Shown: in pieces, positions 6,793-50,899 of the stretch
How the letters are laid out: the number at the start of each line of letters is the position of its first letter
Numbering within the stretch: position 1 is the stretch's first letter
Source: Candidatus Bathyarchaeia archaeon
GTDB taxonomy: Bacteria > Patescibacteriota > Microgenomatia > PFEM01 > JAFGMK01
Direction: 5' to 3'
Length of the DNA stretch: 64,000 bases
Assembly (NCBI GenBank): GCA_035529595.1
Contig: DATKWK010000023.1
Location: 142,961 to 206,960, forward strand
Translations under genes and position numbers: made by a program
Notes under the pieces: generated by a model
The model's database searches: none
What the model was told of the DNA's origin: nothing
The model's input: the letters and a program-made list of their open reading frames with translations, nothing else

Positions 6793-8274
6793 ATGATTAT
6801 CGTCAAAGACTTATTTTTTTCTTTCGGCGAGAAACCTCTTTTTTGCGGGGTAGATTTTATTGTGGGAAAAGGACAAAAAGTAGGTTTGGTCGGCCCGAAT
6901 GGTTCAGGAAAAACGACGCTTTTTAGGCTTCTTAGCAGAAAAGAGATGCCGGATGGAGGAACTGTTGAGACTGTTGGTGAGGTCGTTTTAGTCCCGCAGG
7001 AAATTAAATACGATCAGGAAATGGAAGAAAGCCGTTCAATAAGAAAATACCTGGACAAAAACGACGAACATAAAGATTTTGAGCTTTTAAGACTACTCCA
7101 TTCTCTTGATCTTGATGATTTGGATCTAAAATCTTCAGCTTGGCGTTTAAGCGGTGGACAAAAGACAAAAATGGCTTTGGCTAAAGCTTTACTTGACGAG
7201 CCCGATATTCTACTACTTGACGAACCAACCAATTTTATGGATTTCAAGGGAAAAAGGTGGGTGATGAATTTTTTAAGTAAATATCCCAAAACGTTAGTTT
7301 TGGTTTCTCATGATCTCAAGTTGCTGGACGAAGCGATTGACCGGGTTTTATATATCAATCCTCAAACTCATAAGATCGAGGAGTATAAAGGAAATTACTC
7401 AAAGTTTATCAATCTTAAAGAAGAAAAAGAGGCATTGTTAAAAAGGCAGATAACGGCTGAGCAAAAACACATAAAAAGGTTGGAGGAGAGTTTAAAGATA
7501 CTTTATCGATATACTTCCAAAAAAGGAGTAAGGGCCAGAGTTATGCTGCAAAGAAGAATTGCCAGATTAAAGGAATCACTGCCTGACTTACCGCTAGAAG
7601 TCAGACGAATTAAAGTAAAATTGCCAACTCCTTTACCAACCGGAGAGCTGCCGATCCGTGCGGCCAGTATCAGTAAATCATTTGGTAAGAATGAGGTTTT
7701 TAAAAATATTAACTTTTCGGTCATGAAAGGAGAAAGGGTGGCTTTAATCGGGCCAAACGGTGTTGGCAAAAGCACTTTGATAAAAATTCTTGTCGGTGTT
7801 TTAAAGTCGGATAGGGGAAAAGTTACCAAAAACGATAACTTAAAAATCGGCTACTATTCGCAGGAGTTTGAAACTCTCGATCCGGAAAAGACACTGCTTC
7901 AGACAATTAGAAACGGATGCCATCAGGCAGAAGCATTTGCCCGGCCTTTTTTAGGACGGTTTAACTTCTTAAAAACTAAAGTATTTCAAAAAGTGAAATA
8001 TCTATCGGGTGGGGAAAAAACCCGTTTAGCAATTGCTCTGCTGGCCGGACAGGATTTTAACCTGCTTGTTCTGGACGAACCGACAACTTACCTAGATCCG
8101 CTCTCCCAAAGAATTATTTTAAATACTTTAAAAGAATACCGGGGAACGATGATTATCGTTAGCCATACCCGGGAATTTATTTCCGAGCTAAAACCAAACC
8201 GGGCTTTCTTGATGCCGGAAAATAAAATGGTTTTCTGGTCGGATGAGCTATTAGAGAAAGTAGCTGAAGTATAA
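6793..8274 (+). CDS. ABC-F family ATPase (two ABC domains, no TMD; EttA/ARE-like translation factor)
   Basis: Walker A GPNGSGKTT and GPNGVGKST. Two signature motifs LSGGQKTK and LSGGEKTR. Walker B LLLDEPTN and LVLDEPTT. Tandem nucleotide-binding domains with a linker. Confidence 0.85.
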   Translation: MIIVKDLFFSFGEKPLFCGVDFIVGKGQKVGLVGPNGSGKTTLFRLLSRKEMPDGGTVETVGEVVLVPQEIKYDQEMEESRSIRKYLDKNDEHKDFELLRLLHSLDLDDLDLKSSAWRLSGGQKTKMALAKALLDEPDILLLDEPTNFMDFKGKRWVMNFLSKYPKTLVLVSHDLKLLDEAIDRVLYINPQTHKIEEYKGNYSKFINLKEEKEALLKRQITAEQKHIKRLEESLKILYRYTSKKGVRARVMLQRRIARLKESLPDLPLEVRRIKVKLPTPLPTGELPIRAASISKSFGKNEVFKNINFSVMKGERVALIGPNGVGKSTLIKILVGVLKSDRGKVTKNDNLKIGYYSQEFETLDPEKTLLQTIRNGCHQAEAFARPFLGRFNFLKTKVFQKVKYLSGGEKTRLAIALLAGQDFNLLVLDEPTTYLDPLSQRIILNTLKEYRGTMIIVSHTREFISELKPNRAFLMPENKMVFWSDELLEKVAEV

Positions 8275-8301
8275 AACAAAACTGGCAAGCAGGAACTGTA
8301 A

Positions 8302-8796
8302 ATGAGAAAATTAAAAGATCTAAATGAGTTAAAAATAATCTCTCAAGACTTAAAAAGGAAAGGGAAAAGAATTGGCATTATCAGCGGTTGTTTTGAAATC
8401 ATCCACGCTGACTTTATCAGGTTGTTTCGCTTTGCCAAAAAACATGTTGATATCCTTGTTATTGGCTTGAATAGTGATCGAAATGTCAAACTTGCTAAAG
8501 GCGATAACCGGCCCGTTTTTAACTTTTTACAGAGAACAAAGGTTTTATCAGAGCTCGGTACAGTTGATTATATTTTTAAGATTGAAGATATTATTGAGAT
8601 CTCCCCGGAAGAGATTAATCGAATATATCGGAAGATCTATCTGGCGGTAAAGCCGGATTATATTATTACCAACGGAAAAGTTGATAAATACCTGGCAGAT
8701 AAAAAAAGGGCGATTGAAGGAAGCGATATTAAGATACTAAAGATAAGCAATAACAAACAGCCGATTTTAATTGATAAAATAATCGGCGGCAGATGA
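8302..8796 (+). CDS. Cytidylyl/adenylyltransferase-like protein (RfaE domain II / TagD-like fold) with degenerate HxGH motif
   Basis: GKRIGIISGCFEIIHADFIRL...VIGLNSD...KGDNRPV resembles the nucleotidyltransferase (GxFDxxHxGH) family, but the second His is replaced (HADF). Confidence 0.5.
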   Translation: MRKLKDLNELKIISQDLKRKGKRIGIISGCFEIIHADFIRLFRFAKKHVDILVIGLNSDRNVKLAKGDNRPVFNFLQRTKVLSELGTVDYIFKIEDIIEISPEEINRIYRKIYLAVKPDYIITNGKVDKYLADKKRAIEGSDIKILKISNNKQPILIDKIIGGR

Positions 8797-40533: not shown

Positions 40534-41847
40534 TTGGCTAATATTAAAATTCCCCCACATAACTTAGAGACAGAACAATCAATTTTAGGCGCGATTCTGA
40601 TTGATAAAGACGCGATTGTTTCTGTGGCTGAATTTTTGCGTCCCCAACACTTCTATAGCGAATCGCATCAAGTTATCTTTGAGGCAGCACTGGACCTCTA
40701 CGAAGAAAGAAAACCGATTGATATTGTCACTTTGTCTGAAAAGCTTAGAAAGAAGAGGAATTTAACTAAAATCGGGGGTCGGTCTTATCTGGCAGAGCTT
40801 GCAGAAAAAGTACCGACTGCGGCTAATATTGAAAGCTATGGAAAGATCGTCAAAGACGATTACATTAAAAGAGCGTTAATTTCAACCGCGGGAGAAATTG
40901 CCGAACGTGCTTTTGATGAGTCTTCAGAGGCGGATCAGGTAATGGATCTGGCAGAGCAGGCAATATTTTCTCTTTCCCAAAGGCATATGAGGCAGGCGTT
41001 TATTGCGGTAAAGGAAGCGCTGGCTGATTCCTTTGATCGGCTGGATGAGCTTCATAAGAAAGCCGGCGGCCTCCGGGGAATTCCTACCGGGTTTAAAGAT
41101 TTGGACGATACCTTAGCCGGTTTTCAGCCCTCAAATTTAATAATTCTTGCTGCCAGGCCAGGAATAGGAAAGACAGCTTTAGTCCTGAATATGGCTCAAC
41201 ATATCGCGGTTAACGAGCAGATACCAGTTGGCTTTTTTTCATTGGAGATGAGTAAAGAGGAGCTAGTTGACCGACTCCTAATAGGGCAGGCTGACATTGA
41301 TGCTTGGCGTTTAAAAACTGGTCGTTTGGAGGAGGAAGACTTTACTAAGCTTTCAGAGGCAATGGGAGTTTTGGCAGAAAGCCCTCTTTTTGTAGACGAT
41401 ACGCCGGCACTCTCGGTATTGGAAATGAGAACTAAGGCGAGACGTCTCGTCGCTGAGCACAATGCTAAATTTATAATCGTTGATTATTTGCAGTTAGCGC
41501 GAAGCCGTTCTCTTGAAAACCGAGTGCAGGAAGTTTCCGAAATCTCTCAAGGTTTGAAAAATTTGGCGCGCGAACTTAAAATTCCGGTGTTGGCTTGTTC
41601 GCAGCTTTCACGCGCAGTCGAACAGCGCGGATCTAAAAAACCACAATTGGCAGACCTACGCGAATCGGGAGCCATCGAACAAGATGCAGATGTAGTTATG
41701 TTTCTCTGGCGGTCGGATGAGGAGGTGCCCGAGAGTATGCAGCTTTCGATTTCCAAACACAGAAACGGCCCCTTAAGGGAAATTAATCTTTATTGGAAAG
41801 GGGATCGGATTCGCTTCTTTGGGGTGGAGAAGAGAAAAGAAAAGTAG
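40534..41847 (+). CDS. dnaB: Replicative DNA helicase DnaB
   Basis: N-terminal PPHNLETEQSILGAILID and Walker A AARPGIGKTALVLNMA. Normal length, no intein. Confidence 0.9.
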   Translation: MANIKIPPHNLETEQSILGAILIDKDAIVSVAEFLRPQHFYSESHQVIFEAALDLYEERKPIDIVTLSEKLRKKRNLTKIGGRSYLAELAEKVPTAANIESYGKIVKDDYIKRALISTAGEIAERAFDESSEADQVMDLAEQAIFSLSQRHMRQAFIAVKEALADSFDRLDELHKKAGGLRGIPTGFKDLDDTLAGFQPSNLIILAARPGIGKTALVLNMAQHIAVNEQIPVGFFSLEMSKEELVDRLLIGQADIDAWRLKTGRLEEEDFTKLSEAMGVLAESPLFVDDTPALSVLEMRTKARRLVAEHNAKFIIVDYLQLARSRSLENRVQEVSEISQGLKNLARELKIPVLACSQLSRAVEQRGSKKPQLADLRESGAIEQDADVVMFLWRSDEEVPESMQLSISKHRNGPLREINLYWKGDRIRFFGVEKRKEK

Positions 41848-41869
41848 CTTCTGAAGCTGATGATATTAA

Positions 41870-41878
41870 TGCTATAAT
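41870..41878 (+). promoter_or_regulatory. Extended -10 element TGcTATAAT directly upstream of the tRNA-Leu
   Basis: TGCTATAAT ends 12 nt before tRNA position 1. No strong -35. Confidence 0.4.
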
Positions 41879-41889
41879 CGGGCTGATTT

Positions 41890-41975
41890 GCCGGGGTGCT
41901 GGAATCGGTAGACAGGCTGGTCTCAAAAACCAGTGGTCCGAAAAGACCGTGCGGGTTCGAGTCCCGCCCTCGGCA
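41890..41975 (+). tRNA. tRNA-Leu (anticodon CAA), class II with long variable arm; CCA not encoded
   Basis: Folded manually. Acceptor GCCGGGG/CCTCGGC (one G-U). D-stem CTG/CAG with a GG-containing loop. Anticodon stem CTGGT/ACCAG with loop CTCAAAA. Variable arm GGTC-cgaaaa-GACC. T-arm GCGGG-TTCGAGT-CCCGC. Discriminator A. Confidence 0.85.
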
Positions 41976-42004
41976 CTAAGAGAAGCGTTGTCTAAGGTAA
42001 AAAA

Positions 42005-42958
42005 ATGACCGAAGAATCACTAAATAGAGAAATACAAAGGCAGCATTTGGATGAATTATGCCGGTTCATTAATCAATCAAACGAGCAAATTGAACAGGCC
42101 GGTTATACAGAAACAATTGCTTCCCAGGTTGATAATTATATGTTTGATTCTGATCTACCCGAAGGCACAGCGAGATTTGATGCCTTGTTAGCAACATATA
42201 GACAGAGGGCTAATGCTGGTTATAAATACGAAGTGTTTGAGATAACAATTAATGAAGAAAGGGGACAAAACGAACAATTGTTTTGGAGACGATTTGCGGA
42301 AAGTGTTGGTATGCCACTAGAAGAACTAACTAGAAAATCTTATTTATACAATGATGTACAACTTTATTTTGATCGAAACCCAGCAAACAGGATAATTTTT
42401 TTAAGAGGAGTCCATTATTTATCGGGTCAACTTCAGGCCGAGTTAAGGACAGTAATTGATGCCCCGTCTTTTAATAGAGATGCCTTAGCAAGATATTTCG
42501 CTTTAGGATCAGGACAGATTTTACATAGTCTCGATTGGCAGGGTTCGCCTTTTTGGAATGTTTTCGTCAAAGAGGAAGAAGGGAGAAGTGGTATGTTCAA
42601 AAGAGAAGTTAGTAATGAGGTTATTGCTGCTTTTCGCAGAGCAATAAATGATTTAAGGACCGCTGATTCTGCGACAGTAGCTTTACCCTCGGGGAGAGGA
42701 AAGACAACTTTTGTAGACTACCTCTTACGTCGGCATTTATCTTCTGATGTTATTTATATAAGCATGCAGGGGATAGTGGACGAGACTGGGCAAGCAGTTG
42801 ATGAAGAAAAACTAAGACATCTGCCAAGCAATAGAGAGGCAGGGATAGTTTTTATAGATGAAGCACAGCTTTTAGCGGACCGACAAAAAGATGAGCTTAG
42901 GTCACGTTTTGGTAAAGTGACCTTCTTGGAAACTACTGATTTCAGGTCGATAAAATAA
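42005..42958 (+). CDS. Hypothetical protein with C-terminal minimal P-loop NTPase module
   Basis: Walker A LPSGRGKTTF and Walker B IVFIDEAQLL (hhhhDEaQ, as in the AAA_14/archaeal-ATPase style). The protein ends about 35 aa after Walker B. The 200-aa N-terminal domain is unknown. It lies immediately 3' of the tRNA-Leu. Confidence 0.5.
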   Translation: MTEESLNREIQRQHLDELCRFINQSNEQIEQAGYTETIASQVDNYMFDSDLPEGTARFDALLATYRQRANAGYKYEVFEITINEERGQNEQLFWRRFAESVGMPLEELTRKSYLYNDVQLYFDRNPANRIIFLRGVHYLSGQLQAELRTVIDAPSFNRDALARYFALGSGQILHSLDWQGSPFWNVFVKEEEGRSGMFKREVSNEVIAAFRRAINDLRTADSATVALPSGRGKTTFVDYLLRRHLSSDVIYISMQGIVDETGQAVDEEKLRHLPSNREAGIVFIDEAQLLADRQKDELRSRFGKVTFLETTDFRSIK

Positions 42959-42967
42959 TATCTTGTT

Positions 42968-43408
42968 TTAAAATAAGACTAAAAAAATGATGAGACTGAC
43001 AAGTATAACCTGTGGTAGCAAACCCCAAAAAATGCTCGGACTGTTCCGGTGGACGACTTTACTGTGAAAGTAATTCAATTTAGGAAAAAGGTTCAAGTCC
43101 AAAAAGATCATCGGTACCTCCAGAAAATCAGGAAGAAGACTCACTCCGACGCCATGCCAGAGAAGAGGGGAGAATTTCTTTCTGAATTGAAAAAGATAAA
43201 AGACGCTGATAAGAGTCGCAATTCCATCCGCAAGAGCCAACAAAAATATTTTAAGATGGCTTTGCTGTTTAATGTTATACCCGAGATCCCAGTGAGGAAT
43301 AAAATCGCTTAAATAATGACTAATAAGGACCAGGGGTAAAGAAAATAGAGGATTTTTTATTTTCGTGACCAGGATAGCTCCGGTTAAACTATGAGTAGTC
43401 AAAAGCAT
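42968..43408 (-). CDS. Hypothetical small membrane protein
   Basis: 4-5 TM segments, no motif. Confidence 0.4.
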   Translation of the reverse strand: MLLTTHSLTGAILVTKIKNPLFSLPLVLISHYLSDFIPHWDLGYNIKQQSHLKIFLLALADGIATLISVFYLFQFRKKFSPLLWHGVGVSLLPDFLEVPMIFLDLNLFPKLNYFHSKVVHRNSPSIFWGLLPQVILVSLIIFLVLF

Positions 43409-43473
43409 AGACTTAATGATATTAAAAAGAACATCTCTTTTAAAGGGAGAAAATTTGTAGTATCATTTTCTTT

Positions 43474-44322
43474 ATGTTACCGATTCTTTTTAAAATAGGC
43501 GAATTTAGTTTTTCTTCGCTCGGTTTATCGTTAGCCCTGGCCTTTTTAGTCTGTTTTTTTATCATCTGGCGCCGGCTAAGAGAAGCTAATCTTAATGAAG
43601 AAAAAATCGTTGACGCTTTTCTTTTTTCAGTTATCGGTGCAATTATTATGTCACGAGCTTTCTATATCCTTCTTAGCTGGCCAACTTTTAAATTTAACTT
43701 GATTAAATGGTTATATTTTAATTACTTCCCCGGTTTTACATTTACAGGCGCTTTAGTAGGTTTTTTGCTTAGTTTCTATTTCTTCTCTCGTAGGCAGAAG
43801 TGGAATTTTTACAAAGTTGCCGATGAACTCATTTTTGGCTTACTTCCTTTCGCCATGGTAACGGAACTGGGTATTTTCCTTGATGGCAGCGATCTAGGCG
43901 CAGAAACTGGTATGCCCTGGGGTCTTTTCTTCCCGGGGGACATGGTTAGACGCCATCCGGTGAGCCTTTTTAAGTCGCTTTTATTTCTTTCCCTTTGGGT
44001 TTATTTCCTCAGGATTGAGAGAATCTGGCGTAGTTGGAATTGGTACCGGAGTCATAAGGAAGGTTTCATCTTGATTAATTTTGTCATTTTTACTTCCGTC
44101 TTTAAATTAGCGCTTGCTTTTTTAAAACCAATTGGCTTATACTCGGTTTTGGTAGAGAAGGTTGGCAGTTTGTCCCTTCTGGTGATGGGAATTATTTGGC
44201 TTTATATGCGTTCGGGAAGAGACATTAGCGAGGATTTAGGCTTCACCAAAAAAATATCAATTCTTAAAGATAGATTTAAGAATAGAAAGGAAAATATCCA
44301 TGGAAAAAACAAAGGTAGTTAA
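43474..44322 (+). CDS. lgt: Prolipoprotein diacylglyceryl transferase-like (Lgt-like, divergent)
   Basis: Lgt-like topology and a HPVSLFKS segment aligned to the Lgt HPxQLYE signature. The His of the FHGG region is not conserved. Confidence 0.45.
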   Translation: MLPILFKIGEFSFSSLGLSLALAFLVCFFIIWRRLREANLNEEKIVDAFLFSVIGAIIMSRAFYILLSWPTFKFNLIKWLYFNYFPGFTFTGALVGFLLSFYFFSRRQKWNFYKVADELIFGLLPFAMVTELGIFLDGSDLGAETGMPWGLFFPGDMVRRHPVSLFKSLLFLSLWVYFLRIERIWRSWNWYRSHKEGFILINFVIFTSVFKLALAFLKPIGLYSVLVEKVGSLSLLVMGIIWLYMRSGRDISEDLGFTKKISILKDRFKNRKENIHGKNKGS

Positions 44323-48845: not shown

Positions 48846-49945
48846 AAAAAGATAAAGGAGGCGAAGAGAAGGGGAGTAGCTAGTGTTATCCTATAATATA
48901 TTCTATTATATCTTTTCACGAACCCAATCCATAGTTTTCACGAACAGCAGATTAAAGGCAAGACCGCCAGAAGATATTTGACCATGGGCATGTAGCTAAC
49001 TTAAGATAAAATCAATATAAAAGCACTCATATTTATTAAGCCTCCTCTCTTCAAGCGGAGGTATCCAAAATCGATATAAAATTAATATTAAATTAGCCTC
49101 ATAATATTACAAGATTGCCCAATCATAGCCCCTTTTTCGTGATATATATTGATATAGTTTAAGAAAAGCTTGTGGAAAAGTAAATGCCGCTTGAAAAGAA
49201 CTTACCTGATTAAAACAAAGAACTAGTTTGCAGACAGTCATGCTATTATGTTTTCTTTTTAAGAAATGGTCCCTATTTCTCCGGACATAGCTTTCTGGTA
49301 AATTTTTAAATAAGACACCAGCTAACCTTTAACACCATGTCGTACAATGTAACTTTTGCGACGTTGGTAGAAAGTAATTGTCGGGGAGGGACTTTTTAGA
49401 AATTTATTATAAAATAAATTGAACAAAATAAAATCTAGAAATAGATAATACTGAATAAGCTTTTGATAAAGATTTCTCTATTATGTGAACATCTTATGAT
49501 TATAATAATAATTACTTTTTAGGCAGACGATACTTCTCCGTTCTTTGTCGGTATCCCCTGGTAATTTTTTGGTTAATCAATGACAATTTTTTATGTTTGT
49601 GTCAATTAATATGATCACTTAATCGGGTAGACTCCTAAACAGGCTTTAAAATGGCTCTAGGCGGCTCGTTCTATTTAAAAGTGATATGGGTTTAAAAAAG
49701 TTTATTTATTTACCGCCATTTTATCCTTTATTACTTATGTCGCACAATATTGACATTAAAATTGTTTTAGATTATGATGTTTATGTAATAAGCAAGACGG
49801 ATGTAAATCATATTTAACCACGGATATTAAATTACAATTAATATATTATGGTTGGAAAGAGTTTATCCTAACATGAAAATTATAGGCCTATTCCCCTACT
49901 TCACTATAGGATTAATTCGGGACCAGAAAAGAAATTTCTTCTTCG

Positions 49946-50899
49946 ATGAAAGAAAAAAAAGACTTGAATCAATTAATTGAAGAGTTCTTGGAACACTTGG
50001 AAGTTGAAAAAAACGCTTCTAGGCTGACAATTAGAAATTATCGCCACTATCTTGGTCGTCTTTTAACTTGGATTGGAAAGAATTTTCCCGGAACTCAAAT
50101 CGATCAGCTTGATCTGGAAATAATTCAGAAATATAGGGTATATTTAGCCCGATATATAGGCAAAAATGGCGAAAGCTTGGCGCTTGTCACTCAGGGCTAT
50201 CATGTGATAGCTTTGCGCTCTTTTCTTAAGTGGCTTCTTAAAAATGATTATAAGACGCTTACTCCAGAGAAAATAGACTTACCTAAGACGCGTTCTAGGT
50301 CATTAAAGTTCTTAACTTTGGAGCAAATCGAAAGCTTACTGGCTCAACCTGCAATCTCGACTATTCGCGGCTTAAGAAATAAGGCAATCTTGGAAATAAT
50401 GTTTTCTACAGGACTACGGGTGTCTGAGGTGGTTAGACTTGACCGTGATCAAGTGAACCTAAAGACACGGGAATTTGGAATAGTCGGTAAGGGCGGCAAG
50501 GCGCGCGTGGTTTTTTTATCTTACCGGGTTGTCAAGTGGCTGACTCGATATCTATCTCAAAGGAAAGACGATTTGAAGCCATTATTTATTAATCACCAAA
50601 AAAAATATGAGGTTGATAAGATTGCCGATCGAAAAACTGATAAGAACGTCAGACTAGGCGTTAGATCGATCCAGCGGTTGGTCAAAAGATATGCTAGGAA
50701 AGCTAAGCTGCCGATTGAAGTAACCCCTCATGTTATCCGTCACTCTTTTGCTACCGATCTGCTTATAGCTGGCGCAGATCTAAGATCGGTTCAAGAGATG
50801 CTTGGACACCAAAATATATCTACGACTCAAATTTATACCCACGTTACTAATCGGCAACTTCGCCAGGTCCACGATGCGTTTCACCGAAAAGGCAGTTAG
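49946..50899 (+). CDS. Tyrosine recombinase, XerC/XerD family
   Basis: Catalytic R (GLRVSE), HxxR (HVIRHSFAT) and Y (TTQIYTHV). A promoter-like TTGACA-17-TATGAT sits at 49752-49780. Confidence 0.85.
   Translation: MKEKKDLNQLIEEFLEHLEVEKNASRLTIRNYRHYLGRLLTWIGKNFPGTQIDQLDLEIIQKYRVYLARYIGKNGESLALVTQGYHVIALRSFLKWLLKNDYKTLTPEKIDLPKTRSRSLKFLTLEQIESLLAQPAISTIRGLRNKAILEIMFSTGLRVSEVVRLDRDQVNLKTREFGIVGKGGKARVVFLSYRVVKWLTRYLSQRKDDLKPLFINHQKKYEVDKIADRKTDKNVRLGVRSIQRLVKRYARKAKLPIEVTPHVIRHSFATDLLIAGADLRSVQEMLGHQNISTTQIYTHVTNRQLRQVHDAFHRKGS

Follow-up and report, generated by a model that had tools for sequence, protein, structure and literature searches.

Degenerate AAA+ subunits that do not bind ATP are normal in clamp loaders, and in the AAA+ protein NSF one ring is largely inactive and structural. 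Here we describe X317, a protein of 317 amino acids (aa) encoded directly downstream of the transfer RNA (tRNA) gene tRNA-Leu(CAA) in a 64-kb stretch of contig DATKWK010000023.1 (assembly GCA_035529595.1), and compare it with these and related systems; the whole of this stretch is called the window below. With moderate confidence we regard X317 as the product of a lineage-restricted accessory gene of a Microgenomates-type chromosome, in which a dead and a live AAA+ module stand in tandem and which would, by inference, act as an ATP-gated switch. A first-pass annotation of the window had described the same protein as a minimal P-loop module behind a 200-aa N-terminal domain that matched nothing obvious, and had proposed that it possibly formed, together with a small membrane protein, an integrated accessory or defence module.

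The closest described proteins share some features of X317 and differ in others. ORC/Cdc6 proteins and the Orc1-derived Sir3 (1fnn, 2v1u, 3te6) have the same alpha/beta core as the N-terminal module, with template-modelling (TM) scores of 0.51-0.57 and a Foldseek probability of 1.0, and the N-terminal module, like Sir3, has lost its nucleotide-binding motifs and presumably serves as a binding surface. Unlike ORC/Cdc6, X317 has neither a helical lid nor a winged-helix domain, the identity is about 10%, and a live P-loop core is fused behind the degenerate one. The likeness to MuB consists of a match to Pfam AAA_22 above the gathering score and of the rank of the MuB filament (8xvb), which was second among the fold matches of the N-terminal module and ninth for the whole protein. 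Unlike in MuB, the match lies on a module without a P-loop, and there is no transposase partner; a tandem architecture is not known in MuB. Two tandem AAA+ cores are also found in ClpA, ClpB/Hsp104, p97/Cdc48 and NSF, which gave the best full-length fold matches, but X317 is under half their size, carries the dead module first and lacks lids, pore-loop regions and N-domains. Clamp-loader subunits (RFC small subunit; bacterial delta and delta-prime) share the pattern 'hhhhDEa..L....Q..LR' with both modules of X317 (RFC 2chg, PHROG 168); however, the E-values are weak (1e-3 to 1), X317 has no lid or collar domains, and its family is far too rare for a core replication factor. We regard the X317 family as a new architectural variant within the AAA+ ATPases, which is a small novelty.

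The two modules of X317

The structure of X317 was modelled with AlphaFold2 (AF2) from a 9-sequence alignment of its family. Modelled alone, the N-terminal module (residues 1-199) reached a predicted local distance difference test (pLDDT) value of 79 and a predicted TM score (pTM) of 0.74, and the model showed five strands alternating with helices. The top PDB matches of this model in Foldseek were the Sir3 AAA+ domain, MuB, Cdc6 and ORC subunits (TM 0.5-0.57 over 160-190 columns, probability 1.0). Pfam AAA_22 (PF13401) matched residues 64-156 with 29.4 bits against a cut-off of 27, which was the best Pfam match of X317 and was shared by six of the nine family members. The earlier statement that the N-terminal domain matched nothing obvious was therefore wrong, and the domain is not novel. 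The AAA_22 match spans only profile positions 24-111, past the P-loop, on a module that has no P-loop itself, and the P-loop position (residues 47-54) reads FDSDLPEG. A search of the PDB by sequence returned P-loop-level noise only.

The other catalytic positions of the N-terminal module are also altered. In the family profile, IIFL-RG-VHYL...Q..LR is aligned with IIFLDEADAL..Q.ALRR, the Walker B region in the RFC small subunit, and RG stands in the place of DE. The degenerate Walker-B strand is followed by a conserved Q..LR helix with the invariant R148, which belongs to this module and not to the C-terminal one. Further downstream lies the family signature SP(F/L)xNxF, SPFWNVF in X317, which from the order of the motifs may stand at the place of the SRC/SRF arginine-finger motif of clamp-loader/ORC-type AAA+ proteins, with proline in place of the arginine. 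We read residues 1-199 as a predicted complete five-strand, catalytically dead AAA+ core of the ORC/Cdc6/Sir3/MuB type. The first-pass annotation held that a housekeeping family in this domain would speak against an accessory gene; the module resolved into none, and a degenerate AAA+ core was found instead.

The Walker A motif SGRGKTT and the Walker B motif VFIDEAQLL, both noted in the first-pass annotation, were confirmed in the C-terminal module (residues 200-317). Pfam AAA matched residues 228-295, from Walker A to Walker B, with 25.1 bits against a cut-off of 21.2, and the PHROG clamp-loader family 168 matched residues 205-300 (E = 1.3e-3). With Walker A and Walker B on a P-loop alpha/beta core, this module falls within the AAA+ superfamily. 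The AF2 model runs in the order helix 0, strand 1, P-loop, strand 2, Walker B strand 3 and strand 4, and the chain is predicted to stop 7 residues past strand 4, so that strand 5 and a helical lid are missing. The N-terminal module is predicted to pass directly into helix 0 of the C-terminal module, with no lid there either. At the tip of strand 4, after FLE, most family members have T or N, and this residue is a likely candidate for sensor 1. As modelled, we read residues 200-317 as a live but truncated, lid-less AAA+ core.

The full-length AF2 model (pLDDT 81, pTM 0.63) had its best PDB matches among the two-module AAA+ proteins ClpA, p97, NSF and ClpB (E = 3e-5 to 1e-3), followed by MuB and ORC. 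The full-length TM scores were merely 0.2-0.34, because the packing of the modules differs and the targets are much larger. Compared with a viral structure library, the model matched generic two-lobed P-loop proteins only, and the NCBIfam, PHROGs and PADLOC libraries gave nothing specific for X317.

When 1.84 billion cluster representatives were searched exhaustively with HMMER, 8 clusters were returned at E <= 1e-3, seven with lengths of 306-317 aa and one of 470 aa. Word-indexed searches gave 1 and 3 matches, and one of these searches supplied an extra member, P0009. Family members are 24-35% identical to X317, and eight of the nine aligned members are full-length open reading frames (ORFs) of 306-317 aa. 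The family alignment showed invariant residues in both halves: L139, R148, S181, N185 and F187 in the N half, and L217, L227, P228, G232, K233, F236, D285, E286, Q288, L290 and K304 in the C half. The family is very rare, about 310 aa long, and so far found mainly in small Patescibacteria-type genomes.

From these features we propose how X317 may work. The N-terminal core is devoid of Walker A, of the acidic residues of Walker B and of the SRC-like arginine, and the C-terminal core retains both Walker motifs together with a likely sensor 1. ATP would be bound at a single live site in the C-terminal module. Binding of ATP would alter the packing of this module against the dead N-terminal module or against another copy of X317, and the dead module may provide a binding platform for a partner, either nucleic acid or protein. 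X317 would then be an ATP-gated binding or assembly switch and not a translocating motor, because it has one live site and a minimal core with no lid, pore loops or extra domains. The suggested parallels are the degenerate AAA+ modules of Sir3 and of some ORC and clamp-loader subunits, and the assembly of ORC/Cdc6 and MuB on DNA.

The slot beside tRNA-Leu(CAA)

The first-pass annotation had placed X317 directly 3' of the only tRNA, and this was borne out: ARAGORN found tRNA-Leu(CAA) as the single tRNA of the 64-kb window, and an Rfam scan of the window found no RNA family besides the same tRNA. The spacer between tRNA and X317 is 28 nucleotides (nt), with both genes on the same strand. X317 is probably co-transcribed with tRNA-Leu, because this spacer is too short for a promoter of its own; promoter prediction found none in the gap. 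X317 follows dnaB on the same strand at a distance of 157 nt, with the tRNA as the sole gene between them, and its stop codon is 9 nt from the end of a convergent 146-aa ORF. This ORF is the small polytopic membrane protein of the first-pass annotation, with four hydrophobic segments, and it is followed as described there by lgt. Past lgt the gene order is dksA-like, rluD-like and lytR_C-like.

To place the locus, relatives were collected through their DnaB proteins. The nearest DnaB proteins, searched among 185,579 species genomes and the JGI metagenomes, were 60-68% identical and belonged to Patescibacteria of the Microgenomates type, including Levybacteria, Shapirobacteria and Woesebacteria, whose gene order around dnaB is the same as in the window. 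Relatives with more than 68% DnaB identity were absent from the genome and metagenome collections. The comparison set comprised 160 DnaB-anchored Patescibacteria loci, and the sequence searched, all 173 fetched loci together with the window, amounted to 2.28 Mb.

X317 was missing from all 160 DnaB-anchored loci by tblastn and by the family hidden Markov model. Both dnaB and the membrane gene are kept in 18 loci, and in each of these tRNA-Leu(CAA) was found between the two, in either orientation. The remainder of this interval measured 0.46 to 3.6 kb and contained about 20 unrelated families. The recurring ordinary genes were efp (nine of the 18 loci, each time directly upstream of the membrane gene) and an M17-type aminopeptidase (three loci); the other recurring entries were a LAGLIDADG-type ORF and a DnaB intein/extein segment (two loci each), and the rest consisted of an alpha/beta hydrolase and many orphans. 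The same-strand space between tRNA and membrane gene, empty in L005 (24 nt), is filled by an alpha/beta hydrolase in L010 and by a 159-aa orphan in L011; in this genome its occupant is X317. The gene efp was undetectable in the 64-kb window and has therefore moved elsewhere in this genome. X317 is an accessory gene, because it is missing from all 160 DnaB-anchored loci and because the content of the slot varies. X317 sits in a slot between tRNA-Leu(CAA) and the membrane-protein/lgt pair whose content changes freely among relatives. The accessory part of the integrated accessory module proposed earlier therefore stood, on the strength of the 160 relatives, the variable slot and the rare family, while the integration and the module did not, as shown below.

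Three further observations were made in the relatives. The orientation of tRNA-Leu(CAA) was reversed in about half of the 18 syntenic loci, and these changes imply repeated small inversions. LAGLIDADG-type ORFs adjoin tRNA-Leu(CAA) in L002 and L113. The DnaB match was split in L113 (about 7180-8580), L155, L023 and L029 by an ORF ending in DnaB C-terminal extein sequence, which indicates DnaB inteins in some related lineages; the dnaB of the window has no intein.

Elsewhere, genes of the X317 family are solitary and their neighbours vary by lineage, save in one closely related pair (P0008 and P0009), and no conserved partner gene was found across the family contexts. The neighbours were an MFS transporter in L081; thrS-infC-rpmI-rplT on one side and two tRNAs with a miaB-like gene on the other in L088; a methyltransferase and a Na/Ca exchanger in L090; giant proteins and a nuclease in L089; and a contig end, then tRNA-Ile, in L087. 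L081 and L023 come from one assembly, a Patescibacteria genome with 57% DnaB identity, in which the X317 homologue lies far from dnaB. The two genomes that carry P0008 and P0009 have them at the same locus, and these ATPases are 83% identical in amino acid sequence versus 70% for the adjoining HAD hydrolase. The ratio of non-synonymous to synonymous substitution rates (dN/dS) between the two was 0.40. Together these observations indicate vertical retention under moderate purifying selection. A tRNA gene lies within 35 nt of the X317-family gene in three of the seven contexts (the window, L087 and L088).

Several points weigh against our reading of X317. The structure models, and the modules predicted from them, depend on an alignment of nine sequences. 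A test for internal duplication, in which hhalign compared the two halves of the protein, was not significant (E = 0.15) and gave a register at odds with the fold-based one, and we claim no duplication. No conserved partner gene links the family to a process, and the proposed switch is argued from analogy with other AAA+ proteins. The dN/dS of 0.40 denotes moderate constraint only. The closest relatives have 60-68% DnaB identity, at which a recent gain of X317 and an ancient gain followed by losses are not separable. Finally, the tRNA adjacency in three of seven contexts is left unexplained if X317 is purely a random accessory gene.

Table 1. Positions of the features of the X317 locus (window coordinates) and of tRNA genes beside X317-family genes (coordinates of the locus named).
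Feature	Position	Strand	Basis or remark
dnaB	40534-41847	+	Pfam DnaB and DnaB_C, E = 1e-97
tRNA-Leu(CAA)	41890-41976	+	ARAGORN; Rfam RF00005, 55.3 bits; left edge of variable slot
X317, two-module ATPase coding sequence, 317 aa	42005-42958	+	ORF; identical protein in independent assemblies
N-terminal module, residues 1-199	42005-42601	+	Pfam AAA_22; AF2 model; Foldseek
Degenerate Walker-B strand IIFLRGVHYL, residues 130-139	42392-42421	+	Family profile against RFC small subunit
Family signature SPFWNVF, residues 181-187	42545-42565	+	Invariant S181, N185, F187
C-terminal module, residues 200-317	42602-42955	+	Pfam AAA; PHROG clamp-loader family; AF2 secondary structure
Walker A SGRGKTT, residues 229-235	42689-42709	+	G232, K233 invariant in family
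Walker B VFIDEAQLL, residues 282-290	42848-42874	+	D285, E286, Q288, L290 invariant
Strand 4 KVTFLETT, residues 304-311	42914-42937	+	Invariant K304; AF2 strand 305-310
Membrane protein ORF, 146 aa	42968-43408	-	Four hydrophobic segments; many homologues
lgt	43474-44322	divergent from 146-aa ORF	Pfam LGT, E = 4e-23
Xer-type tyrosine recombinase	49946-50899		Phage_integrase, E = 6e-42
tRNA adjacency, window	41890-42005		tRNA-Leu upstream of X317
tRNA adjacency, L087	989-1097		tRNA-Ile downstream of X317-family gene
tRNA adjacency, L088	10925-11084		tRNA-Val/Asp; tRNA-Val overlaps 3' end of X317-family gene

The host assignment conflicts with existing labels. The NCBI label of the identical protein, 'Candidatus Bathyarchaeia archaeon', disagrees with the Patescibacteria-type DnaB similarity and synteny, and several related metagenome-assembled genomes carry the label 'uncultured Gammaproteobacteria'. 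Both labels are probably binning or labelling errors; the Bathyarchaeia label is likely wrong because the closest DnaB proteins and the gene order are of Patescibacteria type.

Integration, defence and other explanations

The first-pass annotation had taken the tRNA 3' end as a possible integration site and expected a direct repeat of it. Searched for as a 22-mer and as a 17-mer, the tRNA 3' end did not recur at up to 3 mismatches anywhere in the window. The only repeat nearby, an exact one of 11 nt, CTAAGAGAAGC (41976-41986 and 43576-43586), was considered as an island boundary and rejected. It begins at the final base of the tRNA call and its second copy lies within the conserved lgt coding sequence; we judged it a chance match because about 8 such matches are expected per 8 kb, because it falls outside the tRNA and because the second copy is inside lgt. 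There were no recombinases between 41.9 and 49.9 kb. The only tyrosine recombinase of the window, 8 kb from the tRNA, was likewise rejected as an island integrase, since it is syntenic in relatives: L001, L008 and L009 each carry a homologue with 56-58% identity in the corresponding downstream neighbourhood, and in L008 and L009 this homologue stands beside gyrA. We take it for an Xer-type housekeeping gene because of this conserved neighbourhood. The genes from the membrane protein to the recombinase are all syntenic with relatives. Directly upstream of the Xer-type gene, the otherwise compact genome has 1.1 kb of non-coding, AT-rich sequence (48846-49945, GC about 0.30). Rfam matched nothing in it, its ORFs do not exceed 44 aa, and its tandem repeats are trivial.

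X317 itself is native in composition, with a GC content of 0.39 against 0.33-0.49 in the neighbouring sequence and a codon usage at z = 0.06 among 60 window genes. No terminal repeats were found around X317. As expected of an island, the gene is present here and absent among relatives, the relatives being distant (at most 68% DnaB identity). The literature search for tRNA-associated islands in Patescibacteria brought up no relevant paper. X317 has no support as an integrated island, and the proposed integration at the tRNA was not supported, for want of a repeat and of an element integrase and because GC content and codon usage are native.

The proposed module of ATPase and membrane protein did not hold either. 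Homologues of the 146-aa protein stand next to lgt in the same position and orientation in L001, L005, L010, L011, L012 and L024; one additional gene separates the homologue from lgt in L004 and L006, and several metagenome contigs share the arrangement. X317 was found in none of the loci with this pairing. A profile search returned at least 1118 clusters, all annotated as hypothetical and all from Microgenomates-type bacteria, and members of the family are always divergent from lgt. The membrane protein is a core Microgenomates gene and divergent partner of lgt that forms no module with X317, because it is paired with lgt where X317 is missing. Its invariant residues H6, H31, H39, W40, D94 and E97 suggest a metal site. 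A YdjM-like family, guessed at for this protein, was unconfirmed, as Pfam had no match for any of nine members of its family. In some assemblies of the same genome the gene callers miss the membrane gene and call an 82-aa ORF on the opposite strand.

The first-pass annotation had also counted X317 among possible anti-phage or plasmid-addiction components, and the corresponding alternative is that of a single-gene anti-phage or abortive-infection ATPase delivered horizontally to a tRNA-adjacent hotspot. The patchy and rare distribution would fit, as would a hypervariable tRNA-side slot rich in orphan genes and homing endonucleases, the three of seven family members that abut tRNA genes, and a weak STAND-type likeness (nSTAND3 in Pfam at E = 0.034; MalT and an NLR among the fold matches). 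However, the cross-check against PADLOC (PADLOC-DB 2.0) gave two marginal matches, each in one of nine family members, the best being PDC-M26B over 73 residues (E = 7e-4, 15.5 bits), and no homologue of X317 was found in 50,697 phage records, 72,556 plasmids or the IMG/VR contigs. The protein consists of two ATPase cores only, with no effector or sensor domain, and the sole defence-type neighbour in any family context was a BrnT/BrnA pair in L089, at a distance of about 7.4 kb. Native codon usage, the missing att repeat and the retention of P0008 and P0009 at the same locus in two diverged genomes also speak against delivery to a hotspot. By any available test X317 is not a defence system, and we consider this alternative unlikely.

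As a second alternative, X317 may be a target-selection ATPase of the MuB/TniB/IstB type that once served a mobile element and persists beside the tRNA in domesticated or relict form. No transposase or integrase was found adjoining any family member, the composition is native and terminal repeats are missing. The best sequence match (AAA_22), the ranks of the MuB filament and the recurrent proximity to tRNAs are what such a relict would show, but the MuB-like module is the dead one. Moreover, a two-module architecture is not known in MuB, TniB or IstB. We give this origin a small chance, and hold it to be rather improbable.

The recurrent adjacency itself, together with the shared transcript implied by the 28-nt spacer, could point to a tRNA-linked function in the processing, repair or surveillance of the adjoining tRNA. 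A tRNA within 35 nt in three of seven contexts compares with an expected 8-10% (binomial p about 0.01-0.03), a background that is a rough estimate from about one tRNA per 25 kb in these loci; the test was picked post hoc on a tiny sample with differing geometries, and we treat the result as a lead and not as a finding. Against such a function, the identity, orientation and side of the tRNA all differ between contexts, four of the seven contexts have no nearby tRNA, and the fold is unlike that of any known tRNA enzyme. We regard a tRNA-linked function as very unlikely.

X317 could also be a replication accessory factor that acts on the DnaB encoded next to it, as a loader analogous to DnaC or DnaI. 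These loaders belong to the same AAA+ clade as the ORC/Cdc6 initiators, and the initiator-type fold of X317 and its place downstream of dnaB on the same strand, with only the tRNA between, agree with this idea. Yet none of the other family members is near dnaB, all 160 relatives have dnaB without X317, and neither DnaC, DnaI nor DnaA appeared among the PDB sequence or fold matches, which makes a loader highly improbable. A decaying or non-functional ORF, suggested by the moderate constraint and the truncated, lid-less C-terminal module, is scarcely credible, since full-length ORFs persist in eight of nine members despite their low identity, the catalytic Walker residues are invariant family-wide, and the truncation is common to the whole family and no lesion of this copy.

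Significance for annotation and for the family

The reading of X317 as a lineage-restricted accessory gene for a tandem of dead and live AAA+ modules changes its annotation from a P-loop protein with a novel N-terminal domain to a two-module ATPase with one degenerate and one live AAA+ module. No long-standing question is answered by the analysis, and its interest is modest. A broader reading, to which we assign a low probability, is that the family represents an undescribed class of small, lid-less two-module AAA+ pseudo-dimers, in which a dead ORC-like core is joined to a minimal live one, perhaps with a preference for sites directly beside tRNA genes. If true, a pseudo-dimer class at tRNAs would point to a self-contained single-gene cassette that targets tRNA flanks and has no recognisable integrase, or else to a factor with tRNA transcripts as its target.

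For the organism, the locus shows that small symbiont-type genomes keep a gene-turnover hotspot beside a tRNA even without visible classical marks of integration. For the family, X317 and its homologues would, if confirmed, be a compact natural pair of dead and live AAA+ modules, and may serve as a model for the control of a single active site by a pseudo-ATPase.

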